A stretch of DNA of 31,766 nt, taken from positions 1-31,766 of the forward strand of contig JAZDCZ010000433.1 of assembly GCA_036679605.1 (NCBI GenBank), in the 5' to 3' direction. The notes below the pieces were generated by a model, which was not told the origin of the DNA, made no database searches, and saw nothing but the letters and a program-made list of their open reading frames with translations. The stretch comes from Gemmatimonadota bacterium (lineage in GTDB: Bacteria > Gemmatimonadota > Gemmatimonadetes > Gemmatimonadales > GWC2-71-9). This document shows, one piece after another, positions 3,301 to 29,447 of the stretch; the stretch's first letter is position 1; each line of letters starts with the position of its first letter. The position numbers and the translations under genes are program-made.

Positions 3301-5540
3301 TCGGCAACATGATCCAGGCGGACAATGAAGACGCCAAGGTGCGCCGCGTCTACGACCTATCGGGGCGGTTAGTAACCGACTCACTGCTCATCCGGAACTA
3401 CGATCGGGCCAGCTCGGCCACCCACAAATACGTCAACACCTACAGCTACGACTCAATAGGTCGGCGCACGACGATGGGGAGGCCCACGGGGTTCGACGGG
3501 GTCAGCACGGACGTCGTATCCTATGGATACAATACTGTCTCTGGCCAGCTCAACCTCGTGACGGACGGCTCGATGAGCTTCACCTGGGTGCATGACCAAG
3601 CGGGGAGGCCGGTGAAGGCCACGATCCCGGGTGGCATCGTTGACGATCGAACCTACGACTCGAACGGCCAGCTTAGGAAGCGCATCGTTGCAGGAGGGGC
3701 GGCGCCTGGCTCCGGCGGGTTCCCCGGCCAGCAGATCTTGGACGACACGTTGAAGTATGACCAACAGGGCCGAGTGCTCTGGGTCGACGATGCCGGCGGA
3801 TTGAGCACCATGACCTACAATGGAATGGGCGCCGTCCTTACATCAGAGCGGTTGATGGATACGCTGAGCTTCTTCCACGCTTTGGCAGAGCCGGGGAGCC
3901 TGCCTACAAGTCGTGAGACCAACGTCCTGGATGCGCTGGGTAATACGCTGACTGCCGATCGCGACGGCTGGAGCATCCAAGGCGGAGTGTTTCCCTCGGA
4001 AAGCTCGACCTATCACTACGAACCCCTTACGGGGCGACTACTCTCGCGGGTGCCGTTTATCGGAGGGTCTGCCGATGCGTACCTATACGACGACGCCGGT
4101 AACCGAATCAGCCAAGGGTGGGGTAACGGGAGTGATACCAATGGCTGGACACGGTCGTATTACGGTGCGGATGGCAAGCTCCGGGTCATCGATCGGCAAG
4201 GCTGCAAGGTCATACAGCTTGCCGGTGGGGCATTGGGGTGTGGATTGATGGCCTACAACCGGCTGTCGGTATTCGAGGAGTATCGATACGACGCCTTGGG
4301 GCGGCGAATACTCGTTCGCGCCCGAAATGATGCGACACGCTGCACAGGGAACATGTGCCCGAACTACATCCAACGGACCGTCTGGGACGGAAACCAGATC
4401 CTCCTGGAGATCCGCCGGCCCGGAGCGGACACGATGTCGATGGCGGCACTCGACTCAACCGATCGCGGCATCGTCTCATTAGGGGCGACAGAATGGATAT
4501 GTGATCCGAACGTTGGGGTCTGCAATTTCGAGGGCAACCCACCCGGAGAGGATGACTGTGCCAACGCTGCGATCATGGTGGAGGTCCCACCAGGGTGCGT
4601 GGAGGTGCCTCTCCCACAGGACTTTTTCCCGTATGGCGTCACCGCCTACCTGCACGGTGGGGAGCTGGATCGGCCGCTGTCGATCAGACGCCTGGATCAC
4701 AGCACCGTGAACCCTGGGTATATAATCCAGCCACTCGCCAACTGGCGCGGTGACTTCGTTACGGGTGCGTATGCCACGGGAGCGGCGGCCGACTGTATGG
4801 CCTCCTCAGGATCGTGCATCGACATGGAGTGGCCCGGCGAACGGATCTGGAACGGGTACCAGAATCGAGACGATCAGCTCACCAAATTCGGACCGAAACA
4901 TTGGATGGGGTCGCTGGTGTATAGTGGGGCAGATGCCAGCGGGTTGTTGTATCGCCGGAATCGTTACTATGATCCCGTAGCTGGGCAGTTCACCCAAGAA
5001 GATCCCATCGGGCTCGCAGGTGGGCTGAACCTGTACGGGTATGCGAACGGAGATCCAGTCAATCTGAGTGATCCGTTCGGGCTGTGTGCGTCTGAGATTG
5101 CGGGTGATACACTGGAAACCCGGGTTGCGCACCTCAGTGAGAGGTGCGTCGACGAGGGAGATGAAGTCGAGGCGGGCCAGTTGATCGGGTACTCCGGCAA
5201 TACAGGCCGTAGCACGGGTCCCCACCTTCACTACGAAGAGGTAAGGGTGCGGGAAGGCTCACCGTGGGGGAACGACGGCATCGTTCGTTTGGACCCGTTG
5301 TTGCTTCTTGCGACAAGTGGTTTTACCCCCCTTGGAGGCAACGCCGTGAGTTTCTATCCCCGGATTAACTCGCGTTTCGGTAGGCGGACTGACCCCATAA
5401 CCGGGCAGTCGGCAGGTCATGGCGGGGTTGATGTAAGGGTTCCTGTGGGGACACCGGTTTACGCGCCATTCTCAGGGGTGGTCGTCCGCTCGGGCACCAG
5501 TTCGAGCTACGGAGAGGTGATATACATCCGACATAGGTGA
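399..5540 (+). CDS. Rhs/YD-repeat polymorphic toxin with M23-like C-terminal tip; probably 5'-truncated by the IS
   Basis: Many YD repeats; Rhs core GLLYRRNRYYDPVAGQFTQEDPIGLAGGLNLYGYANGDPVNLSDPFGL; tip has HLH and HGGVD motifs. Frame is open from 315 and has no signal peptide. Confidence 0.92.
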   Translation: MKPQRNVVVTAQTPNVSWETGAQNKVASYTVKNESGLTDTYTLNCQPGTSVTCDSPSGTSQLLQSGQSATINTTVDLPLYVNSDQAGLKAQTKWTAITMLNVQPPPVAVTPNSSSQAVLGNTQATAEYTVDYQGTSSVFTAGVVCAGQVSGCSASPSSVTVGPGSPATVTVAFTSGTAPASGTIDLTMTGAGTSDVGRVNVSTIEGAVALANPNTDGETMRGDCLSVAAGPAEIQCGDLRLTVPMLPVATMSQARQLTFVYNSAFVKPRPIVAANVTAAASQANVTAKLKRGQTTVAEHTWAGTGFPVDKTVRIALSYDASGLNTGLDDLTLEVTLDPDQGLTTTTTLPVTVPIVNWKDSDAGEGWQHTANEKLVLGQGTTGNKIMWAGADGSTRIYDNIGTNLWAARRPSLPDTIQKFPTYYRRSPIGGGAVVYTVSGLLYSITDVFGKKTSITWGTVNGKNRVLNIKPPTKTGSITAYELQYNGATEPTVTQVKVRDHAGGMSRITTFGKDGDKVASITAPDGRSTSFTYETDGRVKTIASPRGDTSTVTYESSSTWFQAQKVTGVTTVNGALTATTAYTPFMSLGRTSPVEIDQAFAQVNGPRTDVSDVTKFWLTGWGAPWKIEDALGATTQIERTHTTFTEFVTGVLSPNGLRVTSDYDATTGELLKTTNEDTQAETLYQWDSNFHRVLRSTNAVGVATLRSLDPANGNVLSIRPVDAIGVQHDSMAVTFSYSPTYPGLMTSTDDAKGGRTTITYDGWGNRRSVQFPMGAGSGGYLTTTYKTQVGLDTLIIADIDTNRTQRTKIFYDVMDRDTLRVQTSNDASPDSLFVRTVYDAVGDRVRVERWSRPDPNGIGLIKTEWEYDGFGRVKKEIAFDSVGVEQPVVYTYDQAGNQTAVVTRNGHTITMQYDALNRLTQRVVPQVTTAQVATLNSSQDTVSVYPRYGDSNGALVIPQNTDTYVYDNVGNMIQADNEDAKVRRVYDLSGRLVTDSLLIRNYDRASSATHKYVNTYSYDSIGRRTTMGRPTGFDGVSTDVVSYGYNTVSGQLNLVTDGSMSFTWVHDQAGRPVKATIPGGIVDDRTYDSNGQLRKRIVAGGAAPGSGGFPGQQILDDTLKYDQQGRVLWVDDAGGLSTMTYNGMGAVLTSERLMDTLSFFHALAEPGSLPTSRETNVLDALGNTLTADRDGWSIQGGVFPSESSTYHYEPLTGRLLSRVPFIGGSADAYLYDDAGNRISQGWGNGSDTNGWTRSYYGADGKLRVIDRQGCKVIQLAGGALGCGLMAYNRLSVFEEYRYDALGRRILVRARNDATRCTGNMCPNYIQRTVWDGNQILLEIRRPGADTMSMAALDSTDRGIVSLGATEWICDPNVGVCNFEGNPPGEDDCANAAIMVEVPPGCVEVPLPQDFFPYGVTAYLHGGELDRPLSIRRLDHSTVNPGYIIQPLANWRGDFVTGAYATGAAADCMASSGSCIDMEWPGERIWNGYQNRDDQLTKFGPKHWMGSLVYSGADASGLLYRRNRYYDPVAGQFTQEDPIGLAGGLNLYGYANGDPVNLSDPFGLCASEIAGDTLETRVAHLSERCVDEGDEVEAGQLIGYSGNTGRSTGPHLHYEEVRVREGSPWGNDGIVRLDPLLLLATSGFTPLGGNAVSFYPRINSRFGRRTDPITGQSAGHGGVDVRVPVGTPVYAPFSGVVVRSGTSSSYGEVIYIRHR

Positions 5541-7248: not shown

Positions 7249-7279
7249 CCCTCTCTGCCAACGTAGGTGAGACACGGAG
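7249..7279 (+). repeat. Solo IS terminal-repeat remnant
   Basis: CCCTCTCTGCCAACGTAGGTGAGACACGGAG is 30/31 identical to the reverse complement of 27586-27616. It has the same N7-TG(T/C)CAAC-N5-TGAGACAC layout as the IS end at 288-314. Confidence 0.6.
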
Positions 7280-7461
7280 CACGTAACGAATCAGAGTGGG
7301 GCGAAGGCGGAGAACTCAAAAATGCTGGGAGGGGCAGGAACAGGATGTTCAGTGGCTACTGCCACAATGCGTCTCGTTCGCCCCCCATCTCAAGGACAGC
7401 TCGCTAGGGCCCGCCTAATCCAGCCCGAGTCGGTGCGTTCCTGATGAGCAACTTCCGTGGA

Positions 7462-7573
7462 TGTGTCACTTCATGTGTCGATTGGGCCGGTTTTTGTGTC
7501 GATTCAAAGCGGCAGATTCCGGCATGATCGGTAGGGAAGTACGGCAGATCGTGCGTCCTACCAAGGTTTATCC
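7462..7573 (+). repeat. Junction J1 arm (112 bp)
   Basis: Identical to 22105-22217 and 31654-31766 except for one missing G; contains three TGTGTC(ACT/GAT) direct repeats. Confidence 0.95.
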
Positions 7574-7605
7574 AGTTATTTACCGGAAATCGTGCCGTTC
7601 TCGCT

Positions 7606-7617
7606 CCGGCGCCCCGA
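7606..7617 (+). other. Residual tRNA-Pro 3' end at J1
   Basis: CCGGCGCCCCGA followed by TAA matches the end of the longer fragment at 22244-22259 with one G missing. Confidence 0.6.
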
Positions 7618-7664
7618 TAAGCGAAGAGCCTATGGACGCAGTGCGTTCATGGGCTCTTTGCTTA
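7618..7664. terminator. Long hairpin, probable intrinsic terminator after the tRNA remnant
   Basis: TAAGCGAAGAGCCTATGGACGCA-G-TGCGTTCATGGGCTCTTTGCTTA pairs using G-U; same position as the hairpin at 22257-22304. Confidence 0.7.
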
Positions 7665-7674
7665 ATTCGGTACC

Positions 7675-8326
7675 GGATGCGAACCGCAGGTTCGAGCCGA
7701 GCGGCCACCCAGCTCTCGAAGATCCCCCAGCTCTCCCGCGAGACGAGCGAGAATCGCGTCAGCGATTCGCAGCTCCATCCGGGCGAGGCCTTTCCGCTCG
7801 AGCCCCAGCCGAAAACAGACCGCTGGGCGTGGCAACTCCACTCCTCGACCTCAATGCCGAGCACTCGTAGCACCGCTTCGCGAGCCGCTGAGAAGTCGGG
7901 TAGCCTCCAGGCTCGAGCGTTTCGGTCCCATCGACGTTGCGGAAGCGTCCGTGCCTGGGCCACGAGCGTCGGTTCGTACGGGACGCCTACTAGGATCATG
8001 CCCCCCGAAGCGAACGCAGGTACTGATTCGGTTTGGGGAGCCATAACGGAGCTTGGCACCCTTTGGTGGGCGCACCCATGCTTGAATCGGACACCCGGTC
8101 CGGGGCCATGTATGGCGCGCGTGTATTTGCTGCGGTAAGTTGGCCTCGCCGTCTTACCACGCGGGCCGGTGCGGCAGGGGTTGCGGGAGGGTGAGATTCC
8201 GAAGCAGATCCGACGAAAGGTGTTTACACGCCCTCCTTCACAGGCATCCGCCATTCATTCCTTCTCCCGCCGGTCTCAGATCTCCGGAGGGTGTGTGGGT
8301 TCGTGTACGGCGGAGATTCGCCCGTT
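7675..8326 (+). repeat. Conserved island left arm plus integron platform, copy B
   Basis: Highly similar to 22316-22852 apart from the segment after CAACTCCA; its first part also matches 15285-15414. Confidence 0.9.
7841..8044 (-). pseudogene. Truncated 5' end of a putative integron-associated recombinase with HARP-like N-terminal domain
   Basis: MAPQTESVPAFASGGMILVGVPYEPTLVAQARTLPQRRWDRNARAWRLPD fits the HARP-like pattern PY...l....r.lP.RrWd...r.W.lP. It is divergent from attI, in the position intI normally occupies. No catalytic domain remains. Confidence 0.55.
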
Positions 8327-8330
8327 ATAA
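8245..8330 (+). other. attI-like site of array B (core GTTATAA at 8324-8330)
   Basis: Homology with island D stops at this GTTA. GTTATAAGAC is the exact reverse complement of GTCTTATAAC at the start of the first attC (9365-9374). Confidence 0.85.
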
Positions 8331-8450
8331 GACATGTCTCAGAAAGGGTGATTGTCGCGGGTGGAAGGCGGATCCATGAGGCCGAACAGTGCGGGAGTGC
8401 TTTTCAACTCTGCGGTGGTGGTACCCACGAAGTGAGGCGATTCACAAACA

Positions 8451-9335
8451 ATGGCTGAAGCACCCGAAGACGGCCTCTACGTTGGGTCTCACCAGTTCAC
8501 ATTCTCCGAGAAAAACTGGAGGGAATCAGGCAGGGAGTTCTTGAGGTTCTTGTCCGGGGAGCTCAGCGCGTTCGCAGCGACGGCGCTGGGGCTCTGGGGG
8601 CTGGCAGGTGTCTTGGCAGCGGCGACGAATGAGAGCGTGCCAATTGAACGTCTAGCAACTCCGGTCCTACTTGCCGCCCTCGCGGTAGCGGTTTACCGGG
8701 CGTATCGGGCGAGGGACGCCCACGTGCCTGAGGCGCTCGCCTCGGAGAACTCTACGGTCCACCGGATCTTTCGGCGTCAGCGGTGTGGCTGGAATGCTGC
8801 GCTTGCGCGGGCGATGCTAGTTGACCGCATTGACGTTACGGAGGCGACCCTGCAGCGAATCAAGCTGGGGGCTGAGTATATCTCGCATCGTCGTGTGGAA
8901 CGAGAAGAGTACCTGGACTGGCTCAAGACCCGACCGGAGTCCATGCAGCGGCTCGTTCGTGCTGCCAGAGTGCTCGTTACAGAGATCTTGCCAGGGGTGA
9001 TCGGTCGCACGACTGGAGAGGCGGATCTGGCGGACTTGAAGAACGAAATCGACGCACTGGCAAGAGTGTATGGCTCTGCGCGGGATCTTGAGATCGAGTG
9101 CTTCCGCCTTGTGCCGCCCGAAGAGTTCGCTGCAATCCATGAGATGACCCATGGCTGGACGGACACCATCCGAAAGAGCGTACGAGAGTTCTGTGAAATT
9201 CTGGAGAACCTGGAGGCTGTCGGTAGGAAGCGACTCCTCAAAGGAGATGTTCCGTCACCGAACTTCCGCATCACTGTGGGCGCACCCGAGAACATCGAAG
9301 AGTTCAACAGGCAGTTAGAAGCATTCGCAGGCTAG
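8451..9335 (+). CDS. Cassette B1: membrane protein, two N-terminal TM helices and a helical domain
   Basis: 294-aa ORF filling the space between attI and attC B1; two hydrophobic stretches near the N-terminus. Confidence 0.8.
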   Translation: MAEAPEDGLYVGSHQFTFSEKNWRESGREFLRFLSGELSAFAATALGLWGLAGVLAAATNESVPIERLATPVLLAALAVAVYRAYRARDAHVPEALASENSTVHRIFRRQRCGWNAALARAMLVDRIDVTEATLQRIKLGAEYISHRRVEREEYLDWLKTRPESMQRLVRAARVLVTEILPGVIGRTTGEADLADLKNEIDALARVYGSARDLEIECFRLVPPEEFAAIHEMTHGWTDTIRKSVREFCEILENLEAVGRKRLLKGDVPSPNFRITVGAPENIEEFNRQLEAFAG

Positions 9336-9367
9336 GATCGAATTGGCGGATGTGGGTTCGACACGTC

Positions 9368-9462
9368 TTATAACAAACAATTGCCGGCTCCGTTCGCTTC
9401 GCTCACTTCGACGAGCACGGCTCGCTGAAGGCGAGCCGCGCCGGCAACTTAGAATGTTTTGT
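9368..9462 (+). repeat. attC-like site B1 (short family, 95 bp)
   Basis: TTATAAC...TTGCCGGC...GCCGGCAA...GTTTTGT. Confidence 0.85.
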
Positions 9463-9472
9463 AACACCACCC

Positions 9473-9946
9473 TTGGGAGACGCATTGAGACGTGACCAGA
9501 TGCATTCGATCGCACTCCAGTTTCGGCGAGCCATCGAGCAGGTTGGACCAAGGGACACAGTCTTTGCAGCGATGAAAAGCTTTCCCAAGGGGTGCTGCAA
9601 GGACACATCGTTCCTCTTGGCTCGGATTCTGAACCTAAGGTATGGAGTGCACGAGTCTCGATATGTATATGGCACGCGCGCAGCGGAGAGTCTAGAGTGG
9701 TATACACACGGCTGGCTCGAGACTGCGGGCTACATCCTGGATGTGACTGCTGATCAGTTCGAGGAGGTCAGTGAAAAGGTTATGGTGACGCCGATAGGAG
9801 AGAGCGAGTTTCACGATTCGTGGTCCGGGCAGTGCTCCTCCGCGTACCCGCGGTTCTGGAGCTTCAATGACGAAGCCGGGCCCCAATTCGAAGAGACTCT
9901 GGAGCTTCTGATGGCTGCGATGGCGTCTTCGCAGGTACGTGACTGA
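9473..9946 (+). CDS. Cassette B2 gene 1: papain/transglutaminase-like protein (start may be ATG 9500)
   Basis: FPKGCCKDTS...HGWLE...ILDVTADQF gives a Cys-His-Asp triad pattern. Confidence 0.65.
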   Translation: MGDALRRDQMHSIALQFRRAIEQVGPRDTVFAAMKSFPKGCCKDTSFLLARILNLRYGVHESRYVYGTRAAESLEWYTHGWLETAGYILDVTADQFEEVSEKVMVTPIGESEFHDSWSGQCSSAYPRFWSFNDEAGPQFEETLELLMAAMASSQVRD

Positions 9947-10319
9947 CGGAGGAATCTTGGGTAACAGGCAGCTCAGCAATTCGGAACTGGACGACCTTTT
10001 CCAGCCGCTTCTGGAAGAAACCCGGGCGAGTATTCGGGAGTTGGCGGGGCCCGATAATGAACTCGCCTGGGCTCTTCGACGGAAACTCTACAAGGAACTG
10101 AGTTACGACGAACGGGGAAAGCCAACGCACCGAAAGAGGCTCAAGGCGGCTAAGCGAGATCAGCAGAATGGCCTCTGCGCGCTTTGCGGTGAGTCGCTTC
10201 CTGAGAAGGGAGCCGTGCTTGATAGGTATGAAGCAATGAGCGGCTATACGGAGGAGAATACACGGCTACTCTGCCCCATCTGTGATACGCAGGTGCAGAC
10301 GAGCCAACGGTACTCGTAG
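9939..10319 (+). CDS. Cassette B2 gene 2: HNH-like Zn-binding nuclease
   Basis: CALC...VLDR...GYTEENTRLLCPIC; overlaps the upstream gene by 8 bp. Confidence 0.7.
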   Translation: MTDGGILGNRQLSNSELDDLFQPLLEETRASIRELAGPDNELAWALRRKLYKELSYDERGKPTHRKRLKAAKRDQQNGLCALCGESLPEKGAVLDRYEAMSGYTEENTRLLCPICDTQVQTSQRYS

Positions 10320-10341
10320 AACGTGTGGTGCGGGTGGCGTC

Positions 10342-10436
10342 ACATAACAATCAGTTGCCGGCTTCGTTCACTTCGCTCACTACGGCGAGCACGGCTCGCT
10401 TAACGCGAGCCGCACTGGCAACTTAGAACGTTATGA
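10342..10436 (+). repeat. attC-like site B2 (short family)
   Basis: ACATAAC...GTTGCCGG...CTGGCAAC...GTTATGA; near-identical to 26105-26198. Confidence 0.9.
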
Positions 10437-10458
10437 GACGTGCCTAGAGGGGACTGGG

Positions 10459-10879
10459 ATGCCTGAAGTCGAAACGAAGTTTGGTCGAATCGCGCTTCGT
10501 GCACATGAGCTAGCATCTGCGGGATTGCATGCTCTCGATGCCTGGCACGGAAGCCTTCAGGAGAAGTTACGCTGGGAGGCAGTTGGAAACCCAGACCCGT
10601 CACAGCTGCCCCAAGTGGGCCTTCAGCATCTTGTGCCATGAAGGACATCTCAAGGCAATCGAATCCGGAGGCTGCCCTAAGGCGGAGACCAGCAGTTCAG
10701 CCGCCTATGCGATCAGGGGACTGAGGCAGTTGCTGAAGGAGCCGTGGCTGGCACGGAATAGAAGAGCGCTTAAGAGCCGCGTGTTTGGTGACCGCGGCGA
10801 TCCGGACCATCGAACGCCTAATGGTGAGATGGAGGTTCTCCTCGCACTTTGGAAGGCGGGGGCCATGAGTCGAGGCTGA
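10459..10879 (+). pseudogene. Cassette B3 gene 1: frameshifted DUF6979-like gene
   Basis: ORF 10459 (KFGRIAL...DAW) continues in another frame after about 10546 (SCPKWAFSILCHEG...NGEMEVLLALW), consistent with a single +1 base. Confidence 0.55.
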
Positions 10880-10931
10880 TGTGATCAAGTGGCCGGCAGG
10901 TGAGCAGTTGAATTGAGATCGTGGAGGCAAG

Positions 10932-11162
10932 ATGGGAAGTCGCGAAGATCGGGAGACAACGAGTCGGGGATACGTAAATCGGAATCGCCAGACCAACGTC
11001 CGTGCGACGGATCTCCCCGGGAATGATCATCTGCAAAGGATCTATGTCCTCAAATGCCAGGACTGCGGAAACAAGTATGGAGCTAATGGCTCAGACGTCT
11101 TTCAGCGGAAGTGCCCAGAGTGCCAAGGCGGTGCTCCAGGGCTGCCGTTCGATGGCCCCTAG
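10932..11162 (+). CDS. Cassette B3 gene 2: small Zn-ribbon protein
   Basis: GGAGG RBS; CQDC...YGANGSD...CPECQGG. Confidence 0.75.
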   Translation: MGSREDRETTSRGYVNRNRQTNVRATDLPGNDHLQRIYVLKCQDCGNKYGANGSDVFQRKCPECQGGAPGLPFDGP

Positions 11163-11204
11163 GTGAGCAGGATCGCAAGCCAGGAGATTCGACCGCGGCA
11201 CATC

Positions 11205-11356
11205 TCATAACACTGGGCCTCCGGCTCGGGCCGCCACATGCGACCCTCGACCCAACCGGCCGCGACCGGGACGGTGCTGGTGACTGGAAGTGATAGATCA
11301 ACGAAAGTGAAGCAAGAACAGAAGCAGGGCCGGTTCGGAGGCCCTGAACGTTATCT
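11205..11356 (+). repeat. attC-like site B3 (long family, 152 bp)
   Basis: TCATAAC-ACT-GGGCCTCCG...CGGAGGCCC-TGAAC-GTTATCT; closely similar to 27311-27462. Confidence 0.9.
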
Positions 11357-11411
11357 GACACACGCACCCCCAGGGATGAGAATCCACTTTAGCCTAAGAG
11401 AAGGCAGAACC

Positions 11412-12032
11412 ATGGATGCTGATGTTCCCTACATGCCGTCGATCAAGAATTTGCCTGCGATCTTGGACTCCATTCAAAACGCCGGAGCCCCTGATGCCTT
11501 CGGTTTGGACTTCCTCCAGGACCTAGGCTACACCAGCTCGAATGACCGCTCCGTAATCAAGGTCCTGAAATATCTTGGCTTGCTCGACGCGTCAGGGAAG
11601 CCGCAAGCCGCGTACCGGGAGTTCATGGATCACACCAAGGCCAAGTCAGTGCTTGCTGGCCGGCTTTGCCACGCGTACGACGATCTTTTTCGCGCCGACA
11701 AGGAAGCGCAGTCCCGGACCACAGAGAAACTCAAAGGCTGGTTCAAGACCAAGACCGGAGTGGGCGACGCGGTAGCAACCAAGATGGCGTCAACGTTCAG
11801 GGCGCTAGCAGCCTATGCTGACTTCACCGACGTCCCGGCAGTTGAGCCGAAACTCGAAGCGGAGCTTCCTAAAGAGGAGACGACGGAGGAGGAAGAACCG
11901 AAGCGTGAGACACCACTCCCGAATCAAAGCCTCGGGCTGACCTTCCGAGTGGAGGTCAACCTCCCGGACACGACGAATGTGGATACCTACCGGGCGATAT
12001 TTCGCGCGCTCCGCGAGGAACTCCTGTCGTGA
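11412..12032 (+). CDS. Cassette B4 gene 1: DUF5343-like protein
   Basis: PYMPSIKNLPAILDSIQNAGAPDAFGLDFLQDLGYTSSNDR...LKYLGLLD. The longer ORF from 11238 runs through the attC, so ATG 11412 is preferred. Confidence 0.75.
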   Translation: MDADVPYMPSIKNLPAILDSIQNAGAPDAFGLDFLQDLGYTSSNDRSVIKVLKYLGLLDASGKPQAAYREFMDHTKAKSVLAGRLCHAYDDLFRADKEAQSRTTEKLKGWFKTKTGVGDAVATKMASTFRALAAYADFTDVPAVEPKLEAELPKEETTEEEEPKRETPLPNQSLGLTFRVEVNLPDTTNVDTYRAIFRALREELLS

Positions 12033-12604
12033 GGCGGCAGATAAAGCAGTTTGTGTTCTCCGGGCTCCTAGCGCGCCATGCCGTACAGGACATGGAAGCC
12101 GTGGGCCTTCTTCACCATGCCAACGTCACCGTCACTGAGCGCGGGGACGGCGACCTCTACGCATCGGTGCAGGAGCGCATTCGCACTGGCTCCATTGAGA
12201 TGCAGCGCGTTTATCGCGTGCTGTTTGTCCTAGAGAACATGGTGAGAGGGCTCATCAGCTCGCGCCTTCAGGAGGCTGATGGCGCAGATTGGTTCGAGAA
12301 GCGTGCTGGTGCGCCCATGAAGCGCAACGTTGAGAAGCGGCGTGAAGCGGAAGCGAAGAACCAGTGGCATACCGGCCGGAACAAGGAGCCAATCTATTAT
12401 CTCGACTTCGGCGACCTATCGAAGCTCCTGGTCACCCATTGGTCTGAGTTCGAGGACCTTCTCCCTAGCCAAACCTGGGTGCAAAGCCGCCTTGAGGATG
12501 CCGAACGAAGTCGGAACGTGATCGCCCACACGAATCTCCTCTCCTCAGACGAGGTGTCCCGTCTTGAGATGTACCTTCGTGACTGGATTAAGCAGATAGG
12601 CTGA
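12029..12604 (+). CDS. Cassette B4 gene 2: Swt1-like HEPN RNase candidate
   Basis: LFVLENMVR, YLDFGDLSKL and the HEPN RxxxxH motif RNVIAH; GTGA overlap with the upstream gene. Confidence 0.8.
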   Translation: MRRQIKQFVFSGLLARHAVQDMEAVGLLHHANVTVTERGDGDLYASVQERIRTGSIEMQRVYRVLFVLENMVRGLISSRLQEADGADWFEKRAGAPMKRNVEKRREAEAKNQWHTGRNKEPIYYLDFGDLSKLLVTHWSEFEDLLPSQTWVQSRLEDAERSRNVIAHTNLLSSDEVSRLEMYLRDWIKQIG

Positions 12605-12662: not shown

Positions 12663-13466
12663 ATGACCGATTTTTCACCAAGAACAGTGCTGGCCGCTGT
12701 TGAGGCGTTTGGGTTCAACACTAACGCTCAGGTCGAGAACCTCGCCCTGGAGTATGGCCTAGATGGTATCATGGGTGATGGAGGGATCGCCAAGAAGGAG
12801 TCTCGTTTGGCCAGACACTTGGTTGAGCACCCTGAACTAACGGGCTACGCCGGCGTGAGCTTGGTCTACGAATTGATCGAGAAGGCGATCGACGCACGGT
12901 GCCAACCCGATTGGGGAGGCCCACACGATCCGGTTGAGGTCGTGCCGAAGCTCGTCAACTCGTTGGAGCAGGACGGCTTCATCGTCGAGGACTACAAACT
13001 GGTGCGGATGTTGCCGGACGCGGTTCCGGTTGCGGCCGCGCAAGACGAACTCACACGCCTCCTCGAGAAGCACGGTTTCGCCACGGCGGCCGGGCACCTT
13101 GGCCAAGCGTTGACTGCCCATGCCAGGGGTGATTGGGCGGCCGCCAATGCCCAATTGAGGACGTTCGTTGAGGAGCTGTTCGATAGAATTGCTGATCATC
13201 TCTCAGGTGGGGAAAGCGGAGCTTTTGGCTCGAGTCACGAGCGGCGGGAGTGGCTTGCGACGTGCGGCCCACCGTTCTTCGATCCAGAATTGAACGAGTG
13301 GGATCCCGGGAAGAGTGGCGGGTTCCTACAGGGTTTCTGGCGGCGCCTGCATCCGGAGGGGTCTCACCCCGGCCTATCGGACGAAGCGGATTCGAGTCTC
13401 CGGCTTCATCTTGTGCTGATCACGACAGAGCATTTCATGGGTCGTTTCGATCAGCGCGTGACGTAG
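12663..13466 (+). CDS. Cassette B4 gene 3: abortive-infection-like protein (Abi_C/HEPN-like C-terminus)
   Basis: HLGQAL...GDWAAANAQLRTFVEELF...RLHPEGSHPG helical pattern resembling Abi C-terminal domains. Confidence 0.55.
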   Translation: MTDFSPRTVLAAVEAFGFNTNAQVENLALEYGLDGIMGDGGIAKKESRLARHLVEHPELTGYAGVSLVYELIEKAIDARCQPDWGGPHDPVEVVPKLVNSLEQDGFIVEDYKLVRMLPDAVPVAAAQDELTRLLEKHGFATAAGHLGQALTAHARGDWAAANAQLRTFVEELFDRIADHLSGGESGAFGSSHERREWLATCGPPFFDPELNEWDPGKSGGFLQGFWRRLHPEGSHPGLSDEADSSLRLHLVLITTEHFMGRFDQRVT

Positions 13467-13469
13467 GAG

Positions 13470-13665
13470 GGTACTGTCAACTTGCGCCCGACAGCGTCAG
13501 ACTCTGCGGATGAGAACGAACTCAACGAACTACCGCGGCCATCGGTTTCCGCCTGAAATCATCAGCAACGGTGTCTGGTTGTACTGCCGATTCTGCTTGA
13601 GCTTCCGTGACGTGGAGGAACTCCTCGGGAAGCGTGGAATTCTTGTCACCTAGGAGACCGTCAGA
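13470..13665 (+). mobile_element. IS6-family remnant (left end and transposase 5' pseudogene)
   Basis: GGTACTGTCAACTT end, then ATG 13510: YRGHRFPPEIISNGVWLYCRFCLSFRDVEELLGKRGILVT*ETVR. Confidence 0.85.
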
Positions 13666-15186: not shown

Positions 15187-15243
15187 TCAACTGGCCCAAT
15201 GGGGCTGAAAATCAAATGTCTAAGCCGATTAGTCCCTGATACT

Positions 15244-22304: not shown

Positions 22305-22315
22305 CTTGCGATGCT

Positions 22316-22852
22316 GGATGCGAACCGCAGGTTCGAGCCGAGCGGCCACCCGGCTCTCGAAGATCCCCCCGTTCTCCCGCGAGACGAGCGAGAATCGCTT
22401 CAGCGATTCGCAGCTCCATCCGGGCGAGGCCATCGGTGCTTGAGTCCCTAGTCGAGAACAGTCTGCCTGGGAGGGTCAACTCCAGTAGGCCTCTCGTGTT
22501 CGAGCCGCATAGCCGCGCAGCCACATCTCCTCTTCGAAGCGAACGCACGCACTGATTCGGTTTGGGGCGCCATAACGGAGCTTGGCACCCTTCGGTGGGC
22601 GTACCCATGCTTGAAACGGACGCCGAGTCCGGGGCCATGTATGGCGCGCGTGTATTTGCTGCGGTAAGTTTGCTTCGCCGTCTTACCACGCGAGCCGGTT
22701 CGGAAGGGGTTGGGGGGTGAAATACCGAAGCAGATCCGACGAAAGGTGTTTACACGCACTAGTTCGCAGACCTCCGCCACTCATTTCTTATACCGCCGGT
22801 CGCAGATCTCCGGAGGGTGTGTGGGTTCGCGCACGGCGGAGATTCACACGTT
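22316..22852 (+). repeat. Conserved left arm plus integron platform, copy D
   Basis: Homologous to 7675-8326; keeps only about 13 codons (MAPQTESVRAFAS, ATG at 22573 on the - strand) of the recombinase remnant. Confidence 0.9.
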
Positions 22853-22856
22853 AGGC
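22771..22856 (+). other. attI-like site of array D (core GTTAGGC at 22850-22856)
   Basis: Fits GTTRRRY; GTTAGGCGAA is the reverse complement of TTCGCCTAAC at 23711-23720. Confidence 0.85.
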
Positions 22857-23713: not shown

Positions 23714-23808
23714 GCCTAACAAGGGCGTTGCCGGCTCCGTTCGCTTCGCTCACTACGACGAACACGGCTCGCGGGGCGAGCCGCGTCGGCAACGCCTGAA
23801 CGTTATCG
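23714..23808 (+). repeat. attC-like site D1 (short family)
   Basis: GCCTAAC-AAG-GGCGTTGCCG...CGGCAACGCC-TGAAC-GTTATCG. Confidence 0.9.
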
Positions 23809-23898
23809 GCCAGCGGAAGGAAGACGACGCGCCTCTGGCTCGGGAGAGGGACAATGGGGTATGATCCGAGTGAGCCCGGACCCACCGAGGGAGAGTCG

Positions 23899-24105
23899 AT
23901 GAGAACGTATACAGCAGTTGTGGAGAGAGACCCGGATACGGGGCTCTTTGTCGGCTACGTGCCGGGGTTCGCGGGCGCCCATTCTCAAGGCACTACGCTC
24001 GATGAACTGAACAAGAACTTGAGCGAGGTGGTGGCCATGCTCCTGGAGGACGGCGAGCCGAAGCTCGAAGCTGACTTCATTGGTACCCAAACTATCTCGC
24101 CGTAA
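23899..24105 (+). CDS. hicB: Cassette D2: HicB-family antitoxin
   Basis: MRTYTAVVERDPDTGLFVGYVPGFAGAHSQGTTLDEL. Confidence 0.88.
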   Translation: MRTYTAVVERDPDTGLFVGYVPGFAGAHSQGTTLDELNKNLSEVVAMLLEDGEPKLEADFIGTQTISP

Positions 24106-24108
24106 CCC

Positions 24109-24333
24109 ATGGGTCAGTTGCCCGTCCTGAGGTCGCGAGAGGTGATCGCCATTCTCGCGAAGATGGGATTCGAAGAAGTAAGGCAACGAGGTTCTCACAA
24201 GCAGTTCCGTCATCAAGACGGTCGCCGCACGACCGTTCCAGTACATGGTGGACGCGATATCGCCCCCCTCCTACTCCGCCAGATCATCAAAGACATTCGA
24301 ACCACACCGGAGGAGTTTCTCCGGAACCGATAG
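24109..24333 (+). CDS. hicA: Cassette D2: HicA-family toxin
   Basis: GFEEVRQRGSHKQFRHQDGRRTTVPVH. Confidence 0.92.
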   Translation: MGQLPVLRSREVIAILAKMGFEEVRQRGSHKQFRHQDGRRTTVPVHGGRDIAPLLLRQIIKDIRTTPEEFLRNR

Positions 24334-24351
24334 ATCATCCGCAGCGCCGGC

Positions 24352-24501
24352 CGATAACACGGGGCCTCCGGCTCGGGCCGACAAGCGGCCCTCGACCCAA
24401 CCGGCCGCGAGCGGGAGGACGTTGAAATACAGGAGTGGTTCGTCGAAGGAAGCAGACGCGGCCAACGAATGAGGCCGGTTCGGAGGCCCTGAACGTTATT
24501 G
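24352..24501 (+). repeat. attC-like site D2 (long family)
   Basis: CGATAAC-ACG-GGGCCTCCG...CGGAGGCCC-TGAAC-GTTATTG. Confidence 0.9.
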
Positions 24502-24656
24502 GAAACGGGCCTTAAGGTTGATCACGGATTGCATGAATGGTTCGATATGAATCTTGTGATGCGGTCGCGTCGCACGGCAGTTTGGATGTCCTGCGCGCAG
24601 AATCCATCTTGTAATCCGTCACTCGGACAAATGACGACGACAAAGGACAAATAGTC

Positions 24657-25859
24657 ATGTATGAGATCATCTGCCCGCACTGCAAGAAGACCTTCAAGGT
24701 TGACGAGGCTGGGTACGCGGACATCCTCAAGCAGGTTCGCGACGAAGATTTCGAGCAGCAGTTGCATGACCGGCTCGAGTTGGCCGAGCAGGACAAGCGG
24801 AATGCCGTTGAGCTCGCGGAAACCAAGGGCGCCAGCGATTTAGAGAAGGCGGCCGCCACGAAAGACGCGGAGATTCAGGAGCTGAAGGCAACGCTCAACT
24901 CCAGCGAGGTAAAGCAGAAGCTCGCGGTTACAGAGGCGGTCAATGCCGTTGAAAAGGAGCGCGATGAACTGAAGAGCGGCCTTGAGCTGGCGCAACTTGA
25001 GAAACAGCTCGTCGAGAAGTCACTCAAGGACAAGTACGAGACGCAGATCAAGGATCGTGATGACGCGATCGAGCGACTGCGGGACATGAAGGCTCGCCTG
25101 TCTACCAAGATGGTGGGCGAAACCCTCGAACAGCACTGCGAAACCGAGTTCAATCGCATTCGCGCGACGGCGTTTCCGAGTGCGTATTTCGAGAAAGACA
25201 ACGACGCCCGAACTGGGAGCAAGGGAGACTACATCTTTCGTGACTCGGATGAGGCTGGCACCGAAATCGTCTCGATCATGTTCGAGATGAAGAACGAGAG
25301 CGACGAAACAGCTACCAAGAAGAAGAACGAAGACTTTCTCAAAGAGCTCGACAAGGACCGGAATGAAAAAAGCTGCGAATATGCGGTTCTCGTTTCACTT
25401 CTTGAACCTGACAGCGAACTCTACAACTCCGGCATCGTCGATGTGTCTCACCGTTACCCGAAGATGTATGTCGTCCGACCGCAATTCTTCATCCCGATCG
25501 TTACGTTGCTGCGAAACGCGGCCAAGAACTCACTGAAGTACAAAACAGAGCTCGCGCTAGTGAAAGCACAGAACATCGATATCACGAACTTCGAGAACGA
25601 ACTCGATACGTTCAAGACTGGCTTCGCCCGGAACTACGATCTGGCGTCCAGGAAATTCAAGACCGCTATTAAGGAGATCGACAAGACCATCGACCATCTT
25701 CAGAAGACCAAAGATGCGCTGCTAGGTTCTGAAAACAATCTCCGCCTTGCCAACAACAAAGCCGCCGACCTGACCGTGAAGAAACTGACTAAGGGCAACC
25801 CCACCATGGCCGCGAAGTTCGCTGGGCTCAAGAACGATGAAGCTTCCGATTCTGAATAG
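24657..25859 (+). CDS. Cassette D3: DUF2130 family coiled-coil protein
   Basis: EIICPHC N-terminus, coiled coil, [31 protein letters not shown]. Confidence 0.85.
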
Positions 25860-26104
25860 GCTTTGCTCTCACCACCGCCGAGGAGTGTGACGGCTAGCGA
25901 GGGCTTGCGGCTGACACCAGCCGGGCGGGCGTTCCTGGGTCTGGTACCTTCTGGCCGTGAACTTTTGTGGCTTCGGCGAAGCCCGCCAGCCCTGGCGGGC
26001 GGAGCTGAAGCCCGATCCGTCAGCGCCTAGACACAGGAGCCGGGATGTCCTCGTAGATCCTGCTTGGGTATCAACGGGCTGATGAGCCCAACGGGGCCCG
26101 CTCC

Positions 26105-26198
26105 CGATAACAATCAGTTGCCGGCTTCGTTCGCTTCGCTCACTACGGCCATCACGGCTCGCATGCGCGAGCCGCGACGGCAACTTAGAACGTTAAGC
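26105..26198 (+). repeat. attC-like site D3 (short family)
   Basis: CGATAAC-AATC-AGTTGCCG...CGGCAACT-TAGAAC-GTTAAGC. Confidence 0.9.
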
Positions 26199-26223
26199 GG
26201 AATAGCCTCAAGACGAGCGACCG

Positions 26224-27300
26224 ATGGGCGAATTCAGATTTCACCGCCTAGAGCGATGGAAGCAGGGAGGCTCCAGAGACCGAATGGAGTTGGGGATTCC
26301 ACTGCCGATCTCTAGCGGCGGCCTGGTCCTCCGCTGGTGCCCGAATGAAGAGTGCCAACCGCGCAGGTTTCAATTGGGTGACGTCGCCGAGGGAGTGGAG
26401 GTGCCGGGATACGATGGCGCCGTTCAGCGCCGAAATCCGGGGGAACAGGTCTGTACGTGCCCATATTGCGGACTAGACAAAGAGGATGATGCCTTCATCG
26501 CACCCGAGGATGTCCAAGCGGCGATGGACAAGGTAATGTGGGCCGTCGAGGAGGATGTTGGCCAGTGGCTAGGTGATTTGACCAAGGACTTCAACCGCAG
26601 CGTGAATCGGGGAGGGAGCAACTTCCTCAAGATCGAAATGACCAGCTTCCACCGGCCGACCCCTGAACCCCGCGCTTGGCGAGAGGATCTTCTTCGCGTC
26701 CTCGAATGTCATAGGTGCGCACGTCGTTATGGGGTATACGCGATCGGGTTTTTCTGTCCCGATTGCGGAGCGGCCAACCTCGCGAGGCACTTCGAGAGAG
26801 AGGCCGCTCTTATCGTCGGTCAGATCGATCTTGCCGAGCAGATCGCGGAACAGGGACAGCGAGAGCTCGCATTTCGCATTCTGGGAAACGCTCATGAGGA
26901 TGTGGTCACGGGGTTCGAGACTTACTTGAAGAGCACGTTTCGTCTGGTGCTTCGCACGCGCCCAGGGGCATCGGATCTCTTCCAGAAGAAGGAACTCAGG
27001 GGAAACCCGTTTCAGAGTCTCGCGCGCGCATCCGGACTCTTCGCCAGGCTCAACGTTCCTCTCTTCGACGCCGTCGATGCGGAGGGCCTCGAGCAACTGC
27101 GTAAGGAATTTGAGAAGCGTCATGTCGTAGGACACAACCTTGGCCTCGCCGATGAGAAGTACGCCGAGGTGGCCGCCGATGTCGAGGTCGGAGAGACGGT
27201 CCCCCTCCTCGGAAGTGAGATAGAGGAGTTCGCTCGGACCTGTGTCACCGTGCTTGAAACGCTGGAGCAGGAGGTGCCGGAGCTACATCCAACGCCGTAA
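26224..27300 (+). CDS. Cassette D4: Zn-finger protein with HEPN-like C-terminus
   Basis: CPNEEC, CPYC, CHRC and CPDC; VTGFETYLK; RxxxxH motif RHVVGHN. Confidence 0.7.
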   Translation: MGEFRFHRLERWKQGGSRDRMELGIPLPISSGGLVLRWCPNEECQPRRFQLGDVAEGVEVPGYDGAVQRRNPGEQVCTCPYCGLDKEDDAFIAPEDVQAAMDKVMWAVEEDVGQWLGDLTKDFNRSVNRGGSNFLKIEMTSFHRPTPEPRAWREDLLRVLECHRCARRYGVYAIGFFCPDCGAANLARHFEREAALIVGQIDLAEQIAEQGQRELAFRILGNAHEDVVTGFETYLKSTFRLVLRTRPGASDLFQKKELRGNPFQSLARASGLFARLNVPLFDAVDAEGLEQLRKEFEKRHVVGHNLGLADEKYAEVAADVEVGETVPLLGSEIEEFARTCVTVLETLEQEVPELHPTP

Positions 27301-27310
27301 CAGCTACTCC

Positions 27311-27462
27311 GCTTAACACTGGGCCTCCGGCTCGGGCCGCCATAGGCGACCCTCGACCCAACCGGCCGTGACGGGACGGTGCAGTCGAGCGGAAGTGATA
27401 GATCAACCGAAGTGAAGTGAACGAACGAAGGTGGGCCGGTTCGGAGGCCCTAAACGTTATGT
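27311..27462 (+). repeat. attC-like site D4 (long family)
   Basis: GCTTAAC-ACT-GGGCCTCCG...CGGAGGCCC-TAAAC-GTTATGT. Confidence 0.9.
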
Positions 27463-27503
27463 GCAATGGCTTGGACGCGCTGATATGAGAATTCAGTATC
27501 GGA

Positions 27504-27533
27504 TTGACCAAGTGTAGCCAGATGGCTACACTT
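27504..27533 (+). promoter_or_regulatory. TA promoter with overlapping operator
   Basis: TTGACC-17 nt-TACACT; perfect palindrome AAGTGTAGCCA-GA-TGGCTACACTT. ATG lies 5 nt after the -10 box, so the transcript is probably leaderless. Confidence 0.8.
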
Positions 27534-27537
27534 GAGT

Positions 27538-27827
27538 ATGATCGAGATCCGCAAGACTGAGTTCTTCGCGCGGTGGCTCGACGACCTCCGTGTCTCACGT
27601 ACGTTGGCAGAGAGGGGATTGAGCGGCTCGCCGCTGGCAATCCAGGGGATGTCAGGCCCGTTAGTGAGGGTGTCTCGGAGCTACGAATCGATTACGGACC
27701 CGGATACCGAGTCTATTTCAAACGGTATGGGCGGGAGTTGATCATTCTGCTTGTGGGAGGGGACAAGAGTTCGCAGACCAAGGACATCAAGGCTGCACTC
27801 CGCCTCGCTCGCAGTCTCTCGGAGTAA
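27538..27827 (+). pseudogene. Cassette D5: RelE/HigB-like addiction-module killer, frameshifted by an IS-end remnant
   Basis: MIEIRKTEFFARWLDDLR in one frame and IERLAAGNPGDVRPVSEGVSELRIDYGPGYRVYF...GGDKSSQ in another, joined by foreign sequence at about 27592-27616. Confidence 0.8.
27586..27616 (-). repeat. Solo IS terminal-repeat remnant inside the toxin gene
   Basis: Inverted copy of 7249-7279 (30/31). Confidence 0.65.
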
Positions 27828-28480
27828 TGAGCATGAGAACGACCACGACGACCCGATACGACGTTGCTGAACATCTCAGGACGCCCGAGGAAATGGCTGC
27901 GTACCTAGAGGCATGCCTCGAAGAAGCGGATGGAGACGCGGCATTTGTGGCAAAAGGCCTTGGAGACATTGCTAGGGCAAAAGGAATGACTCAGGTGGCA
28001 CGAGATGCTGGACTGTCTCGAGAGAGCCTGTACAAGGCTTTGTCCGGCGAGCGCAGCCCGGGCTTCGACACAATCCTAAAGGTTGTGCGCGCCCTTGGAC
28101 TCAAGCTACACGCCGCGCAATGGTCAGGTGGTAGAGGGATGGATTCTGCCCCGACGCGCTTGGGCGCGGAGGGGTCTTATCGAGCAGGACAACTAGGAGG
28201 AAGTATGGGAACGAAGAAAGTTGGCTATAACAAGTCTGGAATCGACAAGCTCCCAGACGACAAGCCCGTGCTGTACCGCATTAAGACCCAAAGTGGTAAT
28301 GACAACTATGTAGGCGTTGCGAAGCGAGGCCGAGTGCAAGATCGCATAACCGAACATCTGGGTGAGATCCCAGGAGCCAAGGTGTCGATCGAGCAGTTCA
28401 GCAGCATTGCTGACGCTAGGGCAAAGGAAGCAAATGTGATCAAGCGGCAGCAACCGAAATACAACAAGCAGGGCAAGTAG
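27827..28480 (+). CDS. Cassette D5: HTH addiction-module antidote reading in frame into a small GIY-YIG-like protein
   Basis: YDVAEHLRTPEEMAAYL...GMTQVARDAGLSRESLYKALSG; no stop before a second module with its own GGAGG and ATG at 28205 (PVLYRI...NYVGVAKR...EH...PKYN). Confidence 0.8.
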   Translation: MSMRTTTTTRYDVAEHLRTPEEMAAYLEACLEEADGDAAFVAKGLGDIARAKGMTQVARDAGLSRESLYKALSGERSPGFDTILKVVRALGLKLHAAQWSGGRGMDSAPTRLGAEGSYRAGQLGGSMGTKKVGYNKSGIDKLPDDKPVLYRIKTQSGNDNYVGVAKRGRVQDRITEHLGEIPGAKVSIEQFSSIADARAKEANVIKRQQPKYNKQGK

Positions 28481-28539
28481 CGGCGATCGACCGTAGCCAC
28501 CCGGCGGCGCTCACAACGGGGGCTGCCCGGGGCCACCGC

Positions 28540-28694
28540 ACATAACACTGGGCCTCCGGCTCGGGTCGCTTTCGGCGCCCCTCGACCCAACCGGCCCAAC
28601 GTGGTGGGCTTCGGTCGAACGAACGAGGCCTGAGATCTGAATGAGAACAGGGAAACGAAGCAGAGGGCCGGTTCGGAGGCCCTGATCGTTATCA
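28540..28694 (+). repeat. attC-like site D5 (long family)
   Basis: ACATAAC-ACT-GGGCCTCCG...CGGAGGCCC-TGATC-GTTATCA. Confidence 0.9.
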
Positions 28695-28730
28695 GAAGGC
28701 CCGCAGATCGAAGATCCGGTGGAGGATCGA

Positions 28731-29000
28731 CTACAAATGCGACAGGAGCTGGTCGTAATCGGAATGGGAGCCGATCCAGAACCAGACCCAGGTGTCTTCA
28801 TCGCGGATCGCGAGCGCGCGGTAGCCGAGAGAGACACGCGCAGAGAAGATGGATCGGGATGCGTGGACTTGCTTGAAGTTGAGGCCGGGATGAGACGGAT
28901 CTTCAGCGAACGTCGCGTAGGCCTGTCGAGCACGGACCTGGATGCGCTGTGGGAGGACCTTGAAGCACTTCCTAAAGGCGGAAGTGGTCGTAGACCTCAC
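28731..29000 (-). CDS. Cassette D6: RelE/ParE-like toxin (antisense orientation)
   Basis: DPSHPGLNFKQV...SARVSLGYRALA...WFWIGSHSDYD. Confidence 0.8.
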   Translation of the reverse strand: MRSTTTSAFRKCFKVLPQRIQVRARQAYATFAEDPSHPGLNFKQVHASRSIFSARVSLGYRALAIRDEDTWVWFWIGSHSDYDQLLSHL

Positions 29001-29215
29001 AGCTTGTCAGGATCGAGCTGCTTTGTGTCCCCGGCACGCTGTTCCGCCAGAGCGGCATCTGCCAACCCAGCTAGGTCGTCCTGGGACTCCGCTAGCGTGG
29101 CGTCCCACTTCTGCTCGGCCTTGATCTCCTCAAGGAGAGCGGAGGCGAGCGCGTCCTGCTCCGGCGCGGGGAGCTTCGAAGCCTGCTCAAAGGCTTTCTG
29201 AAGAAGTTCAGTCAT
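28997..29215 (-). CDS. Cassette D6: small acidic antitoxin candidate
   Basis: MTELLQKAFEQASKLPAPEQDALASALLEEI...WD; overlaps the toxin start by 4 bp. Confidence 0.75.
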   Translation of the reverse strand: MTELLQKAFEQASKLPAPEQDALASALLEEIKAEQKWDATLAESQDDLAGLADAALAEQRAGDTKQLDPDKL

Positions 29216-29327
29216 GTACGGAGTAGCCCCGAAGATTCTGAGTGATGTAGTTGATACCCGTGGGCTCGCGGATGGATTCATGATGGGCTGGATACAGACG
29301 ATGAAGCAAGCCTCACCGCAGGCCAAC

Positions 29328-29447
29328 TGATAACACGGGGCCTCCCGCTCGGGCCGCCACAGGCGGCCCATCGGGGCGGGTTTCGGTCGGCGAAGGTGTT
29401 TGAACGAACGAAACAGAGCGCCGGTTCGGAGTCCCTGAACGTTAACT
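29328..29447 (+). repeat. attC-like site D6 (long family variant, 120 bp)
   Basis: TGATAAC-ACG-GGGCCTCC...GGAGTCCC-TGAAC-GTTAACT. Confidence 0.85.

Follow-up and report, generated by a model that had tools for sequence, protein, structure and literature searches.

The stretch of DNA analyzed (the window; 31,766 nucleotides) is one whole contig (C372) of a 434-contig, 6.7-Mb MAG with about 60% G+C. It includes remnants of a recombinase gene in two copies, B and D, of a repeated platform, each next to an attI-like site and an array of cassettes. The features are as follows.

7461..7840, plus strand: repeated module of ~380 bp that adjoins and truncates the copy B remnant (repeat analysis, alignment)
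7841..8044, minus strand: copy B remnant, codons 1-68 of a HARP-type tyrosine recombinase (tblastn with the relative P0005)
8045..8327, plus strand: copy B platform from the gene start to the first cassette, with an attI-like site and GTTA at 8324-8327 (B/D alignment)
9364..11353, plus strand: array B with three attC, at 9364-9461, 10345-10433 and 11208-11353 (repeat families D3, D5 and D6; folds)
22482..22544, minus strand: copy D remnant, frame-shifted, start of the SAM-like core-binding domain, about P0005 residues 92-111 (tblastn)
22535..22573, minus strand: copy D remnant, codons 1-13 (alignment with copy B)
22574..22853, plus strand: copy D platform with an attI-like site and GTTA at 22850-22853 (B/D alignment)
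23717..29444, plus strand: array D with six attC, the first three at 23717-23805, 24355-24498 and 26108-26195 and the last three at 27314-27459, 28543-28691 and 29331-29444 (repeats, folds, scanner)

The copy B remnant starts with an ATG at 8044 on the minus strand and continues for 68 codons, ending at 7841. P0005, the one relative returned by a word-indexed search of longer proteins, is a 360-amino-acid protein from a JGI metagenome; the metagenome scan did not return the contig encoding it. The 68-residue peptide and the N-terminus of P0005 share 78% identity over the full 68 residues. When the complete P0005 was compared with the window by tblastn, its residues 1-70 aligned to 8044-7835 (76% identity, E 2e-27), a match far above chance level. 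Since P0005 was matched in both the protein and the tblastn searches, the window peptide is a genuine gene fragment. The copy B remnant is the entire HARP-like domain and nothing beyond it. The 68 codons are in frame within a 224-amino-acid ORF (7580-8254, minus strand), and no homologs were found for its flanking parts on either side of them; outside the 68 codons this ORF is most likely spurious, given the 60% G+C content of the DNA. The AlphaFold2 model of the window peptide is confident (pLDDT 84.3) and shows the order strand-strand-helix-strand-strand-helix. One 365-nt contig from the public run X1 spans the truncation junction (7763-8127) with zero differences. The tblastn search with P0005 detected neither a catalytic domain nor any further piece of the recombinase gene in the window beyond the B and D remnants, and no intact integrase gene was found in it. 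No paralog of the peptide was found in its genome; 200 genomes of the same order had no match, and 6 of 400 other genomes of the phylum had one.

The first 13 codons are common to copies B and D. After codon 13 the reading frame of copy D is shifted by an internal deletion, and the region 22571-22482 encodes 'VRFEEEMWLRGYAARTREAYW', which matches P0005 residues 82-111 (67% identity over 30 residues, E 2e-6, tblastn) and corresponds to the first helix region of the SAM-like domain. Copies B and D thus retain different pieces of a single ancestral gene. The two copies share 87-95% identity between the first codons and the GTTA, with 87-92% in the platform stretch that is 8045-8327 in copy B, and are unrelated past it. 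The distance from the start codon to the GTTA is 280 bp in copy B and 277 bp in copy D. The arrays are on the strand opposite to the gene; the arrangement of gene and array is thus divergent. An earlier note on this DNA had proposed a gene start 280 bp from attI, divergent from the array and conserved in both copies, with truncations after about 68 and about 13 codons. The position, the orientation and the conservation of the gene start were borne out, and so was the length of the copy B remnant; the length given for copy D had to be amended, as this copy also keeps the frame-shifted SAM-like piece.

Repeat analysis and alignment delimited the platform copies at 7461-8327 (B), 22104-22853 (D) and, partially, 15149-15414 (C); the contig end interrupts a fourth copy, which starts at 31653. 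Contig C427 of the MAG begins with the same repeat and probably continues the C372 locus. Contigs of runs X1, X2 and X6 cease to match exactly at 8327, and past this point one X6 contig runs into another first cassette, of different sequence. These public data are contigs and not reads, and a single study produced X1 and X6. The public run X1 has 91% of the sampled words of the stretch and may be the source sample; no RNA data set was listed among those matching the stretch. Runs X2-X9 contain small shares of it, and X2, X6 and X7 cover mainly dispersed repeats and the attI region. Over the window, neither ARAGORN nor Rfam returned anything, a permissive Rfam scan of 22050-22900 returned sub-threshold matches only, and a promoter and terminator scan of 7400-8500 found nothing.

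The module that truncates the copy B remnant has other copies at 22104-22484, 15149-15414 (partial) and 31653-31766 (contig end), and pieces of it are present at C427:1-261 and in further places. It starts with TGTGTCAC plus two TGTGTCGATT repeats. Its right end is fixed (...CAACTCCA), and a different sequence abuts this end in copies B, C and D: codon 68 of the gene (B), unrelated DNA (C) and about codon 111 (D). A third truncation variant was observed in run X6, three contigs of which join the module end (...GGGTCAACTCCA) near codon 13. The module contains a 40-nt copy of the 3'-end of tRNA-Pro(CGG), at 22214-22253 in copy D and 15239-15278 in copy C; the fragment sits 230-450 bp behind the remnants, and in relatives part of the module follows a tRNA-Pro gene or fragment. 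The module of copy D also has a hairpin followed by a T run. Contigs of four runs, belonging to three studies, show high depth for the segments 7249-7314, 7462-7565 and 7673-7789. An inverted repeat of 36 nt (92% complementary) has its arms 20 kb apart, at 7249-7284 and 27581-27616, and the left arm belongs to a high-depth dispersed repeat.

On these alignments, the loss of the gene looks like a series of nested deletions anchored at one end of a repeat. In the proposed course of events, the platform would have been duplicated to produce copies B and D, each of which would then have lost most of the gene through deletions ending at one fixed boundary of the ~380-bp module. Copy D would also have taken an internal deletion of ~230 bp, covering about codons 14-91.

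To the right of each GTTA, plus-strand cassette-like genes are located between imperfect palindromes that start with TAAC and end with GTTA. The attC sites of the window belong to two families, a short one of ~89 nt and a long one of ~145-150 nt. The scanner adopted for these sites looks for TAAC and GTTA 50-210 nt apart with a 9-bp stem beside each. It recovered seven of the nine known sites of the window (two of three in array B and five of six in array D) and zero elsewhere in it; the site at 9364-9461, with a 3' end that is GTTT and not GTTA, was missed. Ten shuffles of the window yielded 2, 0, 0, 0, 0, 0, 0, 0, 2 and 0 sites. Two other scanners were dropped: an earlier one found two of the nine known sites and had matches in shuffles too, and a fold-based one produced many matches throughout the window. 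Within the MAG, the attC families of the window are present only on C372, plus once on C427. The arrays of the window are now orphans that may be frozen or may be served by an enzyme encoded elsewhere, the latter being the trans-acting enzyme on which the earlier note took them to depend.

The cargo of the cassettes includes a DUF2130 protein, an HI1420-type antidote/HTH protein and a DUF6979 protein (24657-25859, 27827-28480 and 10529-10879). At the edge of array B, right after its last attC, a DUF5343 gene and then a Swt1-like HEPN gene occupy 11238-12604, and the region beyond the array, 12663-14966, has no attC; this part may lie outside the cassette DNA. To the left of copy B, 399-5540 encodes a 1713-amino-acid protein with RHS repeats and a C-terminal M23 peptidase domain, unrelated to the array.

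The assignment of the N-terminal domain was examined by sequence and by fold. The Pfam HARP model (PF07443) matched the window peptide (P0003) with E 0.026 and 14.5 bits, below the 25-bit gathering cut-off, and matched 5 of 58 relatives at E<=0.01. A phmmer search with the peptide, exhaustive over 1.84 billion representatives, returned 143 of them at E<=1e-3, the best at 1e-13. Twenty-eight of these 143 were scanned against Pfam; 20 match HARP at E<=0.001, among them SNF2 helicases, HARP-only proteins and one recombinase, and 14 of the 20 are above 25 bits, with scores of 25-55 bits. The 28 scanned proteins include 15 SNF2-family helicases (12 also with HARP, 8 of these above 25 bits), 6 proteins with HARP as the main or sole domain (5 above the cut-off), 3 full tyrosine recombinases and one more with only a weak SAM-like match, and one exonuclease VII large subunit with a HARP match below the cut-off; 4 of the 28 had no Pfam match at E<=0.001. 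A profile of 55 N-terminal sequences searched against all PDB sequences had a single significant match, the HARP domain of SMARCAL1 (4o66, E 5e-5). Foldseek with the 68-residue model returned the XPB damage-recognition domain (E 0.026) and 4o66 (E 0.047), with nothing at E<=0.001, and VIA-align gave Z 5.4 for XPB and Z 3.6 for 4o66, with unrelated folds at equal Z. Because the fold searches gave no clear match, the label 'HARP-like' rests on sequence, not on fold. The domain shares the motif h-F-x-Y-x(3)-h-h-x(3)-K-x(3)-G-x-x-W-x(5)-W-x-h-P with the HARP domains of SMARCAL1 (4o66) and of bacterial SNF2 proteins. It differs from them in that it is fused to a tyrosine recombinase, not to a helicase, and is present as a single copy in the recombinase clade, and its fold match to them is weak. 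The HARP domain of SMARCAL1 binds branched or fork DNA.

P0005 and the product of the intact gene found on contig C13 of genome G327 both have the domains PF13495 and PF00589. P0005 was aligned with 57 complete relatives taken from 80 genome loci, and R216, K244, H306, R309, H332 and Y341 are invariant in all 58 sequences, every one of which matches PF00589 and PF13495. The W39/W46 motif at the N-terminus is conserved in at least 90% of the relatives. The gap between GKGxKDR and HxLRH is 58-61 residues in 58 of 58, compared with 100 in the classical IntI encoded on contig C407 of the MAG, and the IntI-specific insertion (~40 residues, I2 helix region) is absent from all 58. The BLASTP alignment with the classical IntI of the MAG has gaps of 23, 6 and 4 residues, which are located at the IntI-specific segment. 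All 58 relatives match TIGR02249, and the two that were scored in full reached 198.2 (P0005) and 206.9 bits (G327), each in two stretches and below the cut-off of 265; the C407 IntI, used as a control, reached 455.9 bits in one stretch. P0005 was also below the cut-offs of the Xer families, with 179.9 bits for TIGR02225 (cut-off 329.6), 179.1 for TIGR02224 (335.15) and 198.9 for NF040815 (220). Judged from these comparisons, the HARP-type enzyme is outside IntI by the family's own criteria, the insertion being absent and the score below the cut-off.

The intact gene of G327:C13, a contig from one of the six matching genomes of the phylum, encodes a protein with 76% identity to P0005 and 58% to the window peptide. 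An attI homolog is located ~330-430 bp upstream of this gene, in divergent orientation, and ends with ACGTTA; it corresponds to the last ~110 bp of the attI-like platform of the window, which are conserved there. The sequences of copies B and D and of G327 all diverge directly past the GTTA. The G327 contig ends 29 bp past the junction, with no cassette within the visible sequence, and no attC-like site was found in the 3 kb behind the gene. As an intact gene lies here beside the same attI, the divergent layout exists with an intact gene, and G327:C13 is the only intact parallel for this order. The genes of four further genomes of the same class (G384, G343, G308 and G252) are 44-50% identical to P0005 and have co-oriented arrays. 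The arrays behind the intact genes of G384, G343 and G308 use the two attC families of the window: the short attC of the window is 89% identical to a site 1.6 kb behind the G308 gene, and the short family recurs across ~40 kb in G384. No classical IntI was detected in G308 (one contig, 97% complete; no TIGR02249 match at E<=1e-30), and G384 and G343 have one classical IntI each, elsewhere in the genome. No sequence similarity was found between the attI of the window and the gene-to-array spacers of co-oriented loci. In the G308 locus (L197, on G308:C1, reverse strand), the first site behind the gene starts with TAGCAACAAGG, not TAACAACAAGG, and ends like the long attC family; it may be an attI-side hybrid of a co-oriented platform.

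The MAG of the window, 96.5% complete, yielded no intact HARP-type gene. It has two classical IntI genes, C407:8619-9602 (plus strand) and C73:385-1503 (minus strand), which share 88.6% DNA identity and are on small contigs with few repeats; the attC families of the window were not found on either contig. The MAG measures 6.7 Mb with 6.3% contamination and its relatives measure 3-4 Mb, so that it may hold two strains or organisms.

The link between HARP-type genes and attC arrays was then measured with the scanner in two independent sets of 80 loci. In the genome set, 71 attC-like sites were found in 257 kb downstream of the genes and 11 in 570 kb upstream, and of the 39 loci whose downstream sequence reached 1.5 kb, 25 had at least one site and 13 at least two. 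In the metagenome set, the numbers were 36 sites in 137 kb downstream and 5 in 291 kb upstream, with at least one site in 14 of 26 loci of that minimum length. The attC-like sites were thus ~15-fold denser downstream than upstream of HARP-type genes in both sets, and the pooled sets had at least one downstream site in 39 of 65 loci. No site was found in 14 of 39 and 12 of 26 loci, respectively, where the blunt scanner may have missed arrays. The 3' arm has a spacer between its R and L boxes that exceeds that of the 5' arm by 2-4 nt, in the window as in the 160 loci. The longer spacer is on the same arm in nearly all downstream sites, and therefore these sites have one orientation relative to the gene. 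Among 59 genome contigs, 15 stop within 400 bp past the gene, as repeats tend to cause. By self-similarity analysis, many loci have repeat arrays located shortly past the gene; inspected by eye, these consist of TAAC...GTTA palindromes in Desulfitobacterium, other Bacillota, Bacteroidota, Ignavibacteriota and Nitrospirota. The window has its array in front of the gene and divergent, whereas nearly every other locus has it behind the gene, in the same orientation. A tRNA or tmRNA gene is present in 6 of 45 family loci scanned. In the chromosome of Desulfitobacterium sp. Sab5 (L014:11200-20960), which has a co-oriented array, a second conserved hairpin (GGCCGCCGTCCATGGCGGCC-like) precedes many attC, and one copy of it is located between the gene stop and the first cassette.

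Given the catalytic residues of the relatives, the array enrichment and the same-class attI and attC links, the remnant is most likely a dead HARP-type integrase. We consider it probable, with some room for doubt, that the gene was the integrase of a non-classical integron whose intact relatives head integron-like arrays. This reading agrees with the earlier note, which had seen a HARP-like signature in the peptide and had suggested a non-classical integrase from a clade of HARP-type recombinases, part of a distinct integron class. The signature is weak in Pfam but is recovered by phmmer and by the profile match to 4o66. All three checks named in the note spoke for its reading: the closest full-length homologs, P0005 and G327:C13, are tyrosine recombinases with the R-K-H-R-H-Y set and not helicases; the IntI-specific insertion is absent; and adjacency to the same sites was found, for attI in G327:C13 and for the attC families in G308, G384 and G343. 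The origin of the platform in such a clade is therefore supported. Several points stand against the reading: the links between gene and arrays are by position; nearly all other loci are co-oriented, and the attI of the window shows no similarity to their spacers; a share of the loci had no site; the Pfam HARP model matches few relatives, and the fold searches gave no clear match; the MAG has two classical IntI genes, and G384 and G343 one each, so that a classical enzyme could be the one acting on the arrays; and the tRNA-Pro 3' fragment behind the remnants also fits an island integrase.

According to a competing explanation, which we regard as improbable, the gene encoded an ordinary Xer-like or genomic-island integrase, for example one with a tRNA-Pro target, that came to lie beside attC, and the cassettes had been, and still are, moved by classical IntI enzymes. 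The tRNA-Pro(CGG) 3'-end fragments close behind the remnants and the direct TGTGTCGATT repeats, which resemble arm-type sites, speak for it, the two classical IntI genes of the MAG could be the real enzyme of the arrays, and the NCBIfam scores are equally high for XerA and IntI, below both cut-offs. Against it stand the attC-like sites enriched on one side and in one orientation over 160 loci, the same attI junction beside the intact G327 gene, and the array of the same attC family and the HARP-type gene that G308 has without a classical IntI. The lack of the window attC families on the IntI contigs C407 and C73 and the low number of loci with a tRNA or tmRNA gene also speak against it.

Still less probable is that the HARP-type recombinase was associated with arrays without being a cassette integrase, for instance as an enzyme that resolves or stabilizes folded repeats or moves the platform. 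In its favor, G384 and G343 carry both enzyme types, and integron function is said to require the I2 insertion (PMC8138268, PMC9024848). Against it, G308 has no classical IntI, the gene holds precisely the place of intI with respect to the attI-like GTTA, and the first cassette varies by copy and sample. Finally, the 68 codons could in principle be a chance ORF, long ORFs being frequent in high-G+C DNA, or a piece of a HARP-bearing SNF2 helicase, a family found among the top phmmer matches, but this was ruled out as next to impossible by the identity of the peptide to a recombinase across all its residues, by the adjoining SAM-like piece of the same recombinase in copy D and by the lack of any helicase motif found nearby.

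If the remnant was a HARP-type integrase, the gene would have encoded a tyrosine recombinase of ~360 amino acids with an N-terminal HARP-like domain, a SAM-like core-binding domain and a catalytic domain near those of IntI and Xer, without the IntI insertion. It would have held the intI position, separated by a 280-bp promoter/attI region, with GTTA at its end, from cassettes on the opposite strand that each end in an attC. By analogy with IntI, intact relatives would cut and join folded attC and attI, and the HARP-like domain may help to recognize the folded site instead of the missing I2 insertion.

The window shares with classical integrons the divergent layout of gene, attI and array with a GTTA junction, the imperfect TAAC...GTTA palindromes at the cassette ends and a cassette-like cargo (toxin-antitoxin type, HEPN, DUFs), and the recombinase is also of the IntI/Xer branch, with a SAM_4 core-binding domain. 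It differs in that the gene is dead and in that the HARP-type relatives are without the insertion, score below the TIGR02249 cut-off and have an extra N-terminal HARP-like domain. In classical attC sites the R-L spacers of the two arms differ by about 1 nt, whereas in HARP-type sites the spacer of the 3' arm is 2-4 nt longer. Compared with XerC, XerD and XerA, the HARP-type enzymes have the same two-domain core and a catalytic domain of similar length (XerA 199 bits, XerD 180 bits), but they are below all cut-offs (220, 329.6 and 335.15), have the extra HARP-like domain, are located beside attC arrays (Xer enzymes act at a dif site, close to the terminus), and can be present in several copies per genome. 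Clusters of attC without an integron integrase are known as CALIN (IntegronFinder, PMC9024848). As the IntegronFinder definition uses the IntI-specific domain, the arrays of the window would be filed as CALIN, and like CALIN they are without any intact integrase; unlike them, the window keeps an integrase remnant and attI, and elsewhere arrays of this kind are headed by intact relatives that belong to another recombinase type.

The extra domain is described as the feature that distinguishes IntI from other recombinases (PMC9024848), and the insertion is said to be essential for recombining folded single-stranded attC (PMC9024848, PMC8138268). Integrons are reported to be rare in Bacteroidetes and Firmicutes (PMC9024848). 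Smyshlyaev et al. describe the insertion as 'not fully conserved' in an integron-like subgroup (PMC8138268, section 'Simple YRs'), in a passage that mentions neither HARP nor attC. A literature search, subscription journals being outside it, found no paper joining HARP with tyrosine recombinases or integrons.

On balance, we lean towards the view that HARP-domain recombinases without I2 are the working integrases of a second, widespread class of integrons, which software relying on the IntI insertion files as integrase-less, present in Bacteroidota, Bacillota, Ignavibacteriota, Nitrospirota, Gemmatimonadota-like lineages and some archaeal MAGs, in which the HARP domain reads the folded and branched attC instead of I2. 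To this class the window would add, and we somewhat favor this too, a subclade with the classical divergent layout of gene and attI, together with a view of the death of a platform by nested deletions at a dispersed repeat. The window supplies a matching attI and two attC families, and G327 an intact partner gene, which together make a defined set of substrates. If HARP-type enzymes work, the rule of the IntI insertion would not be general, integron censuses would overlook a large class, many 'CALINs' would be complete, and a new mode of recognition of folded DNA by a tyrosine recombinase would become testable.
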